A DNA stretch of 64,000 bases from Squalus acanthias. Lineage: Eukaryota. Below the pieces are notes generated by a model. The model did not search any database. It was not told the DNA's origin and worked only from the letters and a program-made list of their open reading frames with translations. The position numbers were made by a program, and so were the translations under genes. The DNA lies in contig CM059432.1 of the NCBI GenBank assembly GCA_030390025.1, positions 46,006,001-46,070,000 on the forward strand, in the 5' to 3' direction. The stretch's first letter is position 1, and every line of letters begins with the position of its first letter. Shown here piece by piece: positions 1,411 through 6,276 of the stretch.

Positions 1411-1604
1411 TGTCGTAAGAATGAGCCTTACGCGTGGTGAACTTAAAGTAAGCTTTAATCAACTAAAAAGGTGCTACATACAAAAGAGGTCTTACTCTAT
1501 GCCTCTCCAGGATCCAACTGATCAGCCCAGTATTTATCCTGGACTAATCACAGGAAGTGATGTAATAAAGTTCGAGTCACAGGAAGCTGTATTGTGTTAC
1601 CACA
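1411..1604 (-). repeat. 3' LTR of the Gypsy element
   Basis: Identical to 5695-5888 on reading; abuts the PPT. Confidence 0.97.
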
Positions 1605-1616
1605 TTCTCCCCCCCC
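1605..1616 (-). promoter_or_regulatory. Polypurine tract (PPT)
   Basis: Sense GGGGGGGGAGAA immediately upstream of the 3' LTR start TGTGG. Confidence 0.9.
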
Positions 1617-1667
1617 AAAAGATTAGGAGGCCGGGATGAAGTTCGAGTCACAGGAAGCTGTATTGTG

Positions 1668-4597
1668 TTACCACATTCTCCCTCCATTTCGTAGCCGCTG
1701 GACGAGGGAGAGCCGCACCCGTTTGGGTTCTCGTAGCGGTAGAGGGCCCCTAGCCCGTTTACCCGCCGCGGGCCGTGGACCAGAGTCCGAGTGATCCAGC
1801 CCGCTCTGTGAGGGGTCAGGACGATCCTGACTGTGTACTGGTGCCCGAACGGGTGTCGGGCAGGGCTGTGGCAGATCTGTTTCCGAGCGTATGGTACGGG
1901 GTGGATCGTGGCTGCGCGTGCGAGCCCCGACGGGCTCATAGTCAGTCTGCCCCAGGTCGGCACACTGGAGTGAGGTACCAGCCGGCGTCAGATCCAGATC
2001 GTGATGAGAGGCACCTGGCGAGCCCAGAGATGTGCCTGGTACAATATCATCCCCTGGTGTCCCTCTATGTTTCGGCGGGCAGGGAGCCAGATCCCGCAAT
2101 GACACGGTAGATTCCCGACCGTCAGGATACCGAATATAGGCGTAGTTGGGTTGACGTCAGTGAGCTCAATCTCATCTACCAGGGGGTCATTCTTAGACGC
2201 CCGAACATATCTTCGGAGTAGCACTGGTCCCGGTGCAGTCAGCCACGACGGGAGAGATATCCCATAGGATGAGCGACGCTGAAATCGGAAGAACCGTTCA
2301 TGAGGCGTCGTATTTGTGGCGGTCGAAAGGAGGGACCGTGTGGAGTGTAATGCGTCTGGAAGTACTGCTTCCCATTGCTGGTTGGGTAGGCCCCGAGATC
2401 TCAAAGCCAGACGTACCGCATTCCAGATGATAGCGTTAAAACGCTCGACTTGCCCATTCCCGACCGGATGATAAGGCGTTGTTCTGCTGGCAGCAATACC
2501 CTGTTCCGAGAGATAGGCCTTGAGTTCTCCTGACATAAAAGAAGGGCCCCGATCCGAATGAACATAGGATGCCATGCCACAGAAAGCAAATACCTGCTCA
2601 AGGCAGCTGATAACCGTGGTCGTCAGCATACTGGGGCAGGGAAAGGCAAATGGAAAACGGGAATACTCATCGACCATGGTCAATAGATAAGGGTTGCGAG
2701 TTGAAGAGGGCAACGGCCCCTTAAAATCGATGCTAAGCCTTTGCATTGGCTGGGTCGCATGTATGAGTATACCACCCGAGGGGCGGAAAAACTGAGGTTT
2801 CAATTCCGCACAGACTCTGCAGTCCGAGCACATCTTCTTTACATCCCCGGTAGAGAATGGGAGATTTCGGGACCGCACGAAGTGTAGCATGCGAGTAACG
2901 CCCGGATAACACAACCCATCATGGATGTCTACGAGCGTAGAGGGTGCCATGGTGGAGCAGAATGCTCGTGTGAGGGTATCCGGAGCCACATTCTCCTTGC
3001 CAGGTCGATAGTGGATGGTGTAACCAAAAGAGGCCAATTCCAGCCGCCAAAGCTGGATTTTATTATTTTTAATTTTGGTCCGTTTTCGATTATCGAGGAT
3101 GAAGGCGACCGATCGCTGGTCCGTGATTAAGGTAAAGTGCTGGCGAGCTAGGAGATGAGTCCACTTCCGTACTGCCTCTATGATGGCTGTAGCTTCTTTC
3201 TCGACTGGAGGATAATGTAGCTCAGCCCCTTGAAAAGTCCTGGACAAAAATGCCACCGGACGACCTTCCTGATTCAGAGTGGCCGAGATCGCCACCTCCG
3301 AGGCATCACACTCAACAACAAAAGGAAGACTCTCATCGATGGAGTGAAGAGTCGCTTTCTCCAACTGTTTTTTCAGGAGGTTAAAGGCTGCAACAGCCGC
3401 TGTGTCTAGTGGGAATGTGCTGGCCTTCAGTAGAGGTTGGATTCCGTCCGAGAAGTTAGGAATCCATTTAGCATAGTATGCAAACAGGCCGAGGGCCCGG
3501 CGCAAGGAGGCCGGATTCTTAGGTGGCGGGAGTTCTTGGAGTGGGCGAAGCCTTTCAGGGTCAGGTTTAATGATGCCATTGCCCACACAATAGCCAAGGA
3601 TGTTGATGGTTGGTTGTGACTCAATGGATTTAGCCGCATTTAATGTCAAATTACGGTGCTGGAGTGCATCCCAAAATCGTTGGAGATTGGCGTCATGTTC
3701 CCGCTGATTGCGACCTGCGACAGTAATATTGTCCAGATAAGGAAACGTATCCTTTAAGTCTTCCTGTTTGACCAGGTCATCCATTGCTCGCTGGAAGACA
3801 GCCACTCCATTAGTGACCCCAAAGGGGAGGCGACGAAATTGATACAGCCGTCCATTGGCTTCAAAGGCCGTATACTGCTTGTCTGAGACCTTCAAGGGTA
3901 CCTGATGATAGGCACTTTTCAGATCATATGTTGAGAACACCGTGTACTCAGCCAGTTTATTAACCATATCATCGATGCGCGGCAATGGGTATGCGTCCAA
4001 GTCAGTATATTGATTGATGGTCTGTGAATAGTCAATGCACAGCCGTTTCTTGTGAGGTTGTAGAGGGTTCTTAACAATAACGACCTGGGCGCGCCATGGC
4101 GACGAACAAGGCTCGATGATATCCTCTGCTAAAAGCCGAGAAATCTCAGCCGCAATAAAAGACTGGTCTTCCTGACTGAAACGTCGTGACTTTGTTATAA
4201 TCGGTTTGCATCGAGGAGGGATACTGGTAAACAGTGAGGGTTCATCCAGTGAAGCTGCTGACAATGCACAGAACGGTAATCGAGGTCGTATATTAGAAAT
4301 AGTGAGTTCAGGTTTGGATCCGCCGAACTCAATGGTGAGCTTCTTATGCTGCTTTTGAAAATCTAGCCCTAAGATAAGATCACTACATAAGTCCTTGAGC
4401 ACCGAAAGCCGGGTGGAGGGATACCTGTGACCATTAAGTGTTATTTCAACCATACAAAAGCCAGAAATTCTGGTATTAAGTGATGACTGAGCCATCGCAA
4501 TTGCCTGGTCCGATGGGAAAACATGTAGCTTTAACTCTGCAACAATCTGTTCCCTAATGAAACTATCAGTGCTACCTGAGTCAATTAAGGCATCCAT
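1668..4597 (-). CDS. pol: Pol polyprotein (protease, RT, RNase H, integrase); 1-bp frameshift near 2148-2150 in the integrase C-terminus
   Basis: Protease ALIDSGS. RT motifs RLCIDY, DLKSAYHQ, LPFG and YLDN. RNase H CDAS, EKEA, TDQ. Integrase IDFKGP, HSDRG, GQVERFN. The ORF 1988-4597 continues in another frame as YAYIRYPDGRESTVSLRDLAP to the stop at 1668. Confidence 0.93.
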
Positions 4598-5616
4598 TAA
4601 TGTCCATTAATTGATGCTTTTGTAGCTGCATGGAATAGGTTCTGAGGACAAGCAGCTGTAATTGGTGTCGTTGCACAAAGAGTGGCTGAAACTCTAGGTG
4701 TGTTTCTTCGAGAGAAAACCCGAGAGGAAGCACGATAGATTTTAGCCGGAACATCTTGATAGGCCCTTACCGGGGCAGTTCGATAGGACTTAGCTTGATA
4801 AGCCCTCGTAGAGGCTCTTGATAGGCAAACCTTTGCAAAATGACCCTTTTTGTTGCAATGACTGCAAAACGCATTGCGAGCAGGGCAGAATTTCCGAGGG
4901 TGAAACTCATCACCACAAAAGAAGCATTTCTTAGATTGCCAAGAGGCTGCCACAGTGGGGTCATCATCCTCTTCATCAGTGAAGTCATCAGATTGATCGT
5001 CAGGGATAAAGTCCTCCCTAATAGAGTTCACCTGTGGCCTCTTAAATTGCCTGACTGTAGTTAAGGCAGCAGACCGAGGTCTGGGCACTGTATAAAGGTC
5101 TGTATTTCTTTTTGCCAGATCTAGAGAGCAAGCCATGTCATAAGCTCTCTGAAGCTCAAGTGTCTTACTTTCCAGTAGACGCTGGCGTATAAATGGGGAG
5201 GCAAGCCCGCAGATGAAAGCATCACGGATCATTTCTTCACGGTACAGCTCAGCTGAGGCCGCCTGAAAGTTACAGTCCATACTAAGTCTGCGAAGCTCTT
5301 GGAGGAATTTATCAATGGATTCCTCCGGCCCTTGTTGGGCTGTAGCTAGTAGATGTCTGGCATAGACCTCATTCGGTGTCTTAGTATATAGTCTTTTAAG
5401 CGTCCGAATTGCCTCCTCGTAACTGCCCCATTCCTCGACATACTGAAATACATTCGGGGTGACACAGTTGATGAGTATCCGCAATTTTGAGTCATCATCA
5501 GCCTTGCAATATTCGAGAAAATTGTCAAACGTGCGATACCAGTGTTTCCACACCTTACCGGCTGCTGGGGTGTTTGGGTCCAAGTCAAGACGCGATGGTT
5601 TAAGGATGTTTTCCAT
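4597..5616 (-). CDS. gag: Gag with tandem zinc knuckles, running into the protease N-terminus
   Basis: 339-aa ORF with CFFCGDEFHPRKFC-PARNAF-CSHCNKKGHFAKVC (double CCHC, Mag-like). It ends in INGH*, with TAA overlapping the pol ATG. Confidence 0.93.
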   Translation of the reverse strand: MENILKPSRLDLDPNTPAAGKVWKHWYRTFDNFLEYCKADDDSKLRILINCVTPNVFQYVEEWGSYEEAIRTLKRLYTKTPNEVYARHLLATAQQGPEESIDKFLQELRRLSMDCNFQAASAELYREEMIRDAFICGLASPFIRQRLLESKTLELQRAYDMACSLDLAKRNTDLYTVPRPRSAALTTVRQFKRPQVNSIREDFIPDDQSDDFTDEEDDDPTVAASWQSKKCFFCGDEFHPRKFCPARNAFCSHCNKKGHFAKVCLSRASTRAYQAKSYRTAPVRAYQDVPAKIYRASSRVFSRRNTPRVSATLCATTPITAACPQNLFHAATKASINGH

Positions 5617-5682
5617 GATGGGTGATTCCCTGGATCCTTAGTTCCGAGTTCGTCCAAAAAGTTTGAGTGCGAAGTTTTTCAA

Positions 5683-5693
5683 AGTTGATTAAA
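5683..5693 (-). promoter_or_regulatory. Non-tRNA primer-binding site complementary to the element's own LTR
   Basis: Sense TTTAATCAACT begins 1 nt after the 5' LTR, with no TGG. It is the exact complement of LTR sense AGTTGATTAAA (5748-5738). Confidence 0.7.
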
Positions 5694-5694
5694 T

Positions 5695-5888
5695 TGTCGT
5701 AAGAATGAGCCTTACGCGTGGTGAACTTAAAGTAAGCTTTAATCAACTAAAAAGGTGCTACATACAAAAGAGGTCTTACTCTATGCCTCTCCAGGATCCA
5801 ACTGATCAGCCCAGTATTTATCCTGGACTAATCACAGGAAGTGATGTAATAAAGTTCGAGTCACAGGAAGCTGTATTGTGTTACCACA
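5695..5888 (-). repeat. 5' LTR of the Gypsy element
   Basis: Identical to 1411-1604. TATA-like ATAAATA (5821-5815) and an ATTAAA poly(A)-like hexamer (5743-5738) on the sense strand. Confidence 0.97.
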
Positions 5889-6276
5889 GTGGGTATATAT
5901 GCTCTATTTGCTATTTTTAGTGAAAGTGCAACTGTGTGTATATAGAATGCATTTACAGATTTATTACAATAGGTGAACAGAGGAAATCTTCACCTCTTAC
6001 TGAATACTGGAAAATTATGGCTATGGTATTCATTTGATTGTAATTGTGTATACATACTGGAATTTTGTACCCTAGTTAATATAAAGCCAAAGACAGTTAA
6101 TTTAAGGTACTCAATATAGTAGAGCTAACAGATAGTTGAAAATTGCATGAATGTTTCTTGCAACTGGCAACAACTAGTCCGTTGTTTCTTCTTCAGGTGC
6201 TGCGCCTCTTATTAATCCCCCACCACTCATGGGAACCCTTCTTCTTTTGGGCCTCAATGTTCATGCTTCTTTGTAA

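Follow-up and report, generated by a model that had tools for sequence, protein, structure and literature searches.

How is minus-strand DNA primed in an LTR retrotransposon that has no TGG directly after its 5′ LTR? The question is raised by a 64,000-nt stretch of Squalus acanthias DNA (the whole of which is called the window here), in which a reading made from the letters alone, referred to below as the sequence-only reading, had proposed that such an element is primed by a piece of its own LTR.

Anatomy of the window copy and its LTR border

The window carries a whole LTR retrotransposon of 4478 bp (1411..5888), recognised by its direct repeats, ORFs, Pfam domains and target duplication. 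It lies on the minus strand, as do all element features given below, and its parts are ordered as LTR, primer site, gag, pol (PR-RT-RH-IN), polypurine tract and LTR. The 5′ LTR (5695..5888, 194 nt, TG..CA, ending in ...CTTACGACA) is 100% identical to the 3′ LTR (1411..1604, 194 nt), of which it is a direct repeat, and a 5-bp target duplication, CCCAC, flanks both element ends (5889-5893 and 1406-1410). Because the two LTRs are identical, end in TG..CA and are bounded by this duplication, their borders are firm. The polypurine tract GGGGGGGGAGAA (1605..1616) adjoins the 3′ LTR, and similar purine tracts precede the 3′ LTR in relatives too. The gag ORF (4597..5616) encodes 339 aa with two CX2CX4HX4C zinc knuckles; these are visible in the ORF, as the sequence-only reading had noted, the Pfam matches being weak. 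The pol ORF (1988..4597, 869 aa) was assigned protease, RT, RNase H and integrase from the ORF and Pfam. The lack of a chromodomain noted in the same reading also held, PF00385 being detected neither in 18 aligned relatives (0/18, E ≤ 0.01) nor in the last 170 residues of the window Pol (E ≤ 10). The Gypsy domain order PR-RT-RH-IN and the short TG..CA LTRs with an AATAAA-type motif (194 nt in the window copy, 152-231 nt in relatives with complete LTRs) correspond to the characters of the Mag C-clade.

In the window copy gag and pol are in different frames. At the gag/pol junction (4594-4599) this copy is unlike 27 of 28 other genome copies, carrying a short replacement (length +/-1) that creates a stop, and it is broken there though its LTRs are identical. 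Relatives mostly have one Gag-Pol ORF of ~1200 aa, as do most other genome copies, and 34 of 38 scored genome copies read open over the matched part. The family is both abundant and very young. Of 1526 first-look candidates for the LTR-leader query 40 were scored, and each of these is 99-100% identical. When the genome was searched with a 58%-identical relative, the matches obtained (57-58%) apparently belonged to the window's own family, the window Pol being equally close to the query.

Two further features of the window copy were recorded. A 39-nt insertion at 1639-1677, just upstream of the polypurine tract, repeats the tract's last two bases and the LTR's first 37 nt; it is missing from the common form, contigs of three of four runs joining across it, and it looks like a template-switch duplication at purine-rich microhomology. 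The RT active-site box, usually YxDD, reads YLDN at 3728-3739 (Pol residues 287-290); among the 18 aligned relatives its D is invariant and its N has a frequency of at least 90%, and the family is plainly active.

On the sense strand the 5′ LTR is followed by a single spacer base, A (5694), which separates the LTR end ..CA from the stretch TTTAATCAACT (5693-5683), then by TTG and AAAAA (5679-5675). Read on the minus strand in this way, the junction has no TGG adjoining the LTR, in agreement with the sequence-only reading, and none directly follows the LTR in relatives either. Both arms of the proposed duplex were re-read, and TTTAATCAACT (5683..5693), the putative primer-binding site, proved to be the exact reverse complement of the LTR-side arm AGTTGATTAAA (5738..5748, paired as 5748-5738), the candidate self-primer. 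The 3′ part of this arm is the poly(A)-signal-like hexamer ATTAAA that had been described within it. A small hairpin (5725..5737) lies directly 3′ of the arm and is stacked on the main helix in MFE folds. The second hairpin, CGTAAG-N7-CTTACG, was found before the LTR end where it had been placed (5698..5716); it is a candidate U5 stem-loop, with no clear conservation in relatives. Two other proposals fared less well. AAAAA (5675..5679) can indeed pair with TTTTT (5749-5753) across a 3-nt bulge in the window copy, but this pairing finds no comparative support, its register differing from that of the relatives' extensions. The TATA-like box (~5822-5815), used to predict a transcript start ~40 nt upstream of the primer, has no evident counterpart by eye in the relatives' LTRs.

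Elsewhere in the window copy, complementarity to the LTR never exceeds 8 nt in the 99 other internal 22-nt windows tried, and a match of 11 nt arises in 4 of 2000 mononucleotide shuffles of the LTR. Folding 5668-5763 gives an MFE structure with the 11-bp helix and both inner hairpins; its energy, taken alone, is unremarkable (z = -1.83), and the case for self-priming rests on comparative data. Of 30 copies in the same genome, 29 are identical from arm to primer site. Run X5 includes an LTR-variant contig that departs from the window just upstream of 5748, at the T-run, and a second contig with one base added to the arm at 5747/5748.

Own-LTR complementarity in related families

Protein search revealed relatives at 55-75% identity, the named ones being hosted by shrimp, copepod, tunicate, mussel and sea anemones. 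An alignment of 18 Pol sequences (A1) was used to fetch the relatives' DNA. From metagenomes 80 loci were taken, the best of 502 confirmed, and 8 further loci came from contigs filed under bacterial MAGs, which we take to be eukaryotic contamination; a search of viral contigs with the Pol alignment found no relative. Of the 80 metagenome loci, 49 have a match that extends sufficiently towards the 5′ end, and these were submitted to LTR-pair alignment; it succeeded for 20 of them, the other 29 giving no pair or having flanks that were too short, and a wider search yielded a usable new pair in L050 only. LTR ends were fixed by LTR-LTR alignment in 13 copies (the window, L033, L034, L037, L042, L048, L053, L080, L094, L102, L108, L124 and L125), and six more copies have a single usable LTR, the contig ending in it or wrapping through it (L035, L036, L062, L121, L123 and L040). 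The public runs X1-X15 are Logan contigs, mostly of uncertain type and apparently derived from DNA. Between about half and four fifths of the 31-nt words sampled from the element occur in runs of five coded organisms; such words match near-identical sequence only, and their sharing could reflect common ancestry of close species or horizontal transfer.

A perfect complement of the copy's own LTR, 11-17 nt long, was found at the primer-site position in 11 of the 13 copies defined by LTR pairs, and all six single-LTR copies have one of 11-14 nt, so that the complementarity which the sequence-only reading expected of related families is kept. The complement starts at +2 after the LTR (in 10 of 11 copies of the control set), and at +4 only in L034, an old copy; between the end of the LTR arm and that of the LTR lie 23-55 nt. 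Wherever a relative's junction is defined, the spacer is a single base, A in general and T in L080 and L063; only L047 is ambiguous. The longest case described, a 19-nt perfect duplex, belongs to L099, a young antisense copy of the L033 family. Both exceptions are old copies with an LTR identity of 94-95%: L102 has 15 nt with one mismatch, and L094 has only 7 nt to its own LTR. The primer site of L094 (8748-9005) suits the LTR arm of L048 better (12 nt) than its own, and this copy may be a recombinant or have a decayed LTR. In L062 (123-260) the primer-site stretch occurs twice, 56 nt apart, after one LTR, a local junction duplication.

The letters of arm and primer site differ from family to family. 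They read AGTTGATTAAA and TTTAATCAACT in the window copy, AGTTGGTTAAA and TTTAACCAACT in L062, CAAGTTTATTAAA and TTTAATAAACTTG in L048, TAAGCTGTTAAAA and TTTTAACAGCTTA in L033, ATTTCTAGTCGAATAAA and TTTATTCGACTAGAAAT in L042, TTTAGCTAGTTAAA and TTTAACTAGCTAAA in L037, ATGTAGACAAAT and ATTTGTCTACAT in L080, and AACGTCTAGTAAAA and TTTTACTAGACGTT in L123, whose Pol identity is only 43%. As a control, 99 other 22-nt windows were compared with the LTR in each copy, and these reach at most 7-10 nt of complement. For the 9 control-set copies with at least 11 nt, the observed length was reached in 0-4 of 2000 LTR shuffles. In a cross-family matrix, each long match is to the LTR of the copy itself or to one whose arm is identical or nearly so.

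A covariance model built from the 16-family alignment A4 (described below) retrieved 8 further loci with arms of 15, 13, 16, 18, 9, 17, 10 and 11 nt in new letters; a search of this kind rewards pairing, and these loci extend the set and are no independent test. A free search for inverted matches was run on loci without LTR pairs, where ~0.3 chance matches are expected per locus. Its matches of at least 11 nt in L032, L052, L065/L068, L070, L071, L084 and L088, and likewise in L097/L103/L105, L099 and L101, were set aside as chance; none of those inspected (L070, L088 and L105) lies at an LTR border, and the real 3′ LTR of L105 has another arm.

Covariation of the helix and rival explanations

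The sequence-only reading had proposed to test the helix by compensatory covariation of the LTR with the segment that follows it, and the helix passed. In A3, a MAFFT alignment of 11 families in which the helix occupies columns 16-32 with 99-115, 88.2% of cells are paired as against 73.0% after shuffling, 11 of 17 helix pairs change on both sides, and moving the partner by 1-3 columns leaves 23-49% paired. The corresponding values for A4 are 84.2% against 69.7% and 12 of 17 pairs, including the row of L123, which is shifted by one column and tells against the helix. Covariation scores were 0.429 (shuffled, 0.150) for A3 and 0.396 (shuffled, 0.151) for A4, with 0 of 500 shuffles as high in either alignment, a comparison to be read with the caveat that related sequences may exceed shuffles without any structure and that the alignments were anchored on conserved flanking motifs. 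RNAalifold, supplied with no structure, returned the same helix with 13 pairs, 8 of them compensatory, and single-sequence MFE folds include it in all 16 families.

The 11-bp core of the helix (A3 columns 22-32) has 120 of 121 cells paired, with 15 two-sided changes and no one-sided (G-U) change. A helix conserved for its shape only would be expected to show G-U intermediates, and their absence suggests a recopied site; we infer that the strict Watson-Crick core fits a primer-copied duplex better than a purely structural helix. The helix is often 1-8 nt longer than the core (13-19 bp), and the extra pairs covary too. In most families the 5′ edge of the core is a conserved, initiator-like AG that follows a T-rich run. 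The 3′ end of the arm is fixed as AAA followed by (G/A)(C/T)(C/T), and a hairpin usually starts immediately after it; by eye, MFE folds have a hairpin right after the arm in about 12 of 16 families, and RNAalifold on the MAFFT alignment did not call it. In most families, with L080, L061 and L128 as exceptions, the arm closes with the hexamer ATTAAA, AATAAA or AGTAAA.

This hexamer brings up the strongest of the rival explanations, in which the helix is regulatory or structural RNA only, masking the 5′ poly(A) signal or serving as a packaging or dimerisation signal, and priming is left to another, yet unseen primer. Covering the poly(A) signal could alone explain why the helix is conserved. Pairing with the post-LTR segment can, by its very arrangement, involve the 5′ LTR only, and the helix belongs to the MFE fold of all 16 families folded. 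We nevertheless consider it unlikely that this is all the helix does, since the partner strand sits at the exact primer-site position, one base after ..CA, in nearly all copies, the core is devoid of G-U pairs, and the helix persists in L080, L061 and L128, where no poly(A) hexamer is recognisable. Moreover, several families have space for nothing else between LTR and gag ATG: in L033, L042, L048 and L053 the ATG comes 17-20 nt after the LTR, which leaves no room for another primer site. A structural role and priming do not exclude each other.

That a host tRNA, a tRNA half or another small RNA primes here or nearby is far less probable. The window leader does hold a TGG-led stretch, TGGACGAACTCGGAAC (5656-5641), 39 nt after the LTR, at which such an RNA might act, and internal tRNA fragments are used by Copia-type elements according to the portion of PMC6317226 drawn on here. 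However, the primer-site letters vary by family, each site matching its own LTR, which excludes a shared host RNA primer, and the leader stretch is missing in the relatives whose gag begins 17-20 nt after the LTR. The 3.7-Gb genome holds 11 occurrences of the leader stretch's complement, counted only where the next base is not C so as to exclude copies of the element itself, versus 67 of the reversed control. Ten of these 11 matches were fetched and no tRNA was found at any of them (0/10), and the leader stretch TGGACGAAC... was rejected as a tRNA site. The window of 64 kb has no tRNA gene, and 5550-5950 has no Rfam match. The sequence-only reading had named a matching host tRNA as one outcome that would speak against it, and none turned up in the window, in Rfam at 5550-5950 or at the 10 genome loci of this one pattern.

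Chance complementarity in an AT-rich region, for which one might cite the AT-rich 11-mer, the 4 in 2000 shuffles that equal it and a fold z of only -1.83, has next to no probability, being contradicted by the recurrence of the same geometry with different letters in about two dozen families.

A candidate self-primer and its place among known systems

The explanation that we prefer, and regard as likely, is that this young Ty3/Gypsy element, a member of a chromodomain-less clade, primes its minus-strand DNA with its own RNA and not with a host tRNA. As judged from the sequences, the geometry is Tf1-like, with a putative LTR-derived RNA stretch on a site adjoining U5 and its 3′ end pointing into U5. 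In the proposed mechanism, an LTR segment of 11-19 nt in the genomic RNA (AGUUGAUUAAA in the window copy) would fold back onto the primer site one base after the LTR, enclosing a loop of 24-70 nt in which a hairpin as a rule stacks immediately on the duplex. The junction of arm and hairpin would be the natural candidate site for a cut by RNase H, and the freed 3′-OH would then be extended through the spacer and into U5. The resulting short strong-stop DNA would move to the 3′ copy of R. Plus-strand synthesis would copy the RNA primer, by which the primer site would be rewritten in each cycle.

The same helix may mask the poly(A) signal. It would do so only in the 5′ LTR, since no partner strand comes after the 3′ LTR; masking fits alongside priming as a second function. 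With the poly(A) signal inside the primer, only 23-55 nt would be left for the rest of R and U5. Placing the transcript start right on the A of the conserved AG is attractive but is at odds with the covarying helix extensions of 1-8 nt. Since these bring the helix to as much as 19 bp, in some families at least the RNA probably starts somewhat before the 11-nt core.

Self-priming is experimentally established for Tf1 and Tf2 of Schizosaccharomyces pombe and has been proposed for Tj1 of S. japonicus, as stated in the sections of PMC4600332 and PMC5341516 cited here. According to the same sections, these elements resemble the present clade in having no tRNA primer site and in pairing an 11-nt RNA from their own LTR just after the LTR, and both systems have an 11-bp helix, here the core (PMC4600332, PMC5341516); a candidate stem-loop lies between primer and primer site in the present clade too. 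In Tf1/Tf2 the primer is released by the element's own RT/RNase H, and the Tf1 primer consists of the first 11 nt of the mRNA (excerpts of PMC4600332 and PMC5341516), whereas the helix of the present clade often has 13-19 bp, so that the simple Tf1 picture misfits some families. The clade is further unlike Tf1 in that its arm ends in a poly(A)-signal hexamer 23-55 nt from the end of an LTR of ~150-230 nt, no chromodomain was found (0/18), and the hosts are animals.

For predicted self-priming in the Tf1/sushi and Tcn1 groups the reference is said to be Butler et al. 2001. In the relevant part of PMC6317226, self-priming is predicted for the vertebrate Tf1/sushi group, the plant and fungal Tcn1 clade and the Copia TAR lineage, and for the first two, as for the present clade, the prediction comes from complementarity between LTR and primer site. 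The Tf1/sushi and Tcn1 groups are chromoviruses, whereas the present clade has no Pfam chromodomain, a two-knuckle Gag and named relatives in marine invertebrates; the chromodomain at the integrase C-terminus that defines the Tf1/sushi lineage was found in none of the 18 relatives by Pfam. 'Some chromoviruses' are said to use hairpin priming (passage in PMC3601003). In the plant Ty1/Copia TAR lineage (Houba, Osr-1), self-priming has been inferred outside the Tf1 branch from evidence of the same kind, as far as the cited portion of PMC6317226 goes, although that lineage belongs to another superfamily, with the Copia domain order, and has other hosts. A further independent origin would thus not be without precedent.

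The Mag lineage resembles the present clade in its PR-RT-RH-IN order and its short TG..CA LTRs with an AATAAA motif, as far as the partial descriptions go, the Mag C LTRs of an LTR training set averaging 174 nt with an AATAAA motif (section of PMC3601003). Mosquito elements of the Mag lineage are described with tRNA-Leu or tRNA-Ser primer sites (excerpt of PMC3286476), in contrast to the present clade, which has no TGG-led site and carries a complement of its own LTR instead. Membership of Mag C / SURL is plausible, a placement that rests on resemblance in short LTRs, marine-invertebrate relatives and published descriptions. In the full-text literature, the original SURL and Jule descriptions aside, no link of self-priming to Mag, Mag C, C-clade, SURL or Gmr1 was found. 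Retroviruses have helices beside the primer site or over the 5′ poly(A) signal, namely the U5-leader/U5-IR stems and the HIV-1 poly(A) hairpin, which aid the tRNA primer or regulate polyadenylation and are not known to occupy the primer site itself. The helix of the present clade has a similar position but occupies the primer site. What is probably new, as far as sequence comparison can tell, is a Tf1-like mechanism in a different and apparently large lineage, with a primer that overlaps the poly(A) signal.

The fullest version of this proposal can be advanced only tentatively, as we give it somewhat less than an even chance. It holds that a large chromodomain-less clade of animal Ty3/Gypsy elements, probably Mag C / SURL, with hosts among cnidarians, molluscs, crustaceans, tunicates and a cartilaginous fish, would replicate free of tRNA, using as primer an LTR segment that ends in the poly(A) signal; that the primer site would be rewritten in each cycle and the helix would mask the 5′ poly(A) signal; and that the system would have arisen independently of Tf1/sushi and would allow escape from host defences acting on tRNA primer sites.

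To our knowledge, experiments have demonstrated self-primed reverse transcription in the Tf1 group only, and if the present clade self-primes, the mechanism would extend to a Gypsy clade that is widespread in animals. Annotation software in search of a tRNA primer site would then return 'no PBS' for these elements, and primer-site evolution would be a copying process and not selection on two separate sites. Should the clade be Mag C, which includes the sea-urchin element SURL, the finding would concern the most abundant Gypsy clade reported in molluscs (per the cited part of PMC6238403). The overlap of primer and poly(A) signal provides a testable model of how a very short LTR (~150-230 nt) distinguishes its 5′ from its 3′ copy. 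Elements primed by tRNA can be inhibited by 3′ tRNA fragments. Independence of tRNA would let elements escape defences aimed at tRNA primer sites, and it might bear on the well over a thousand near-identical copies in this genome.
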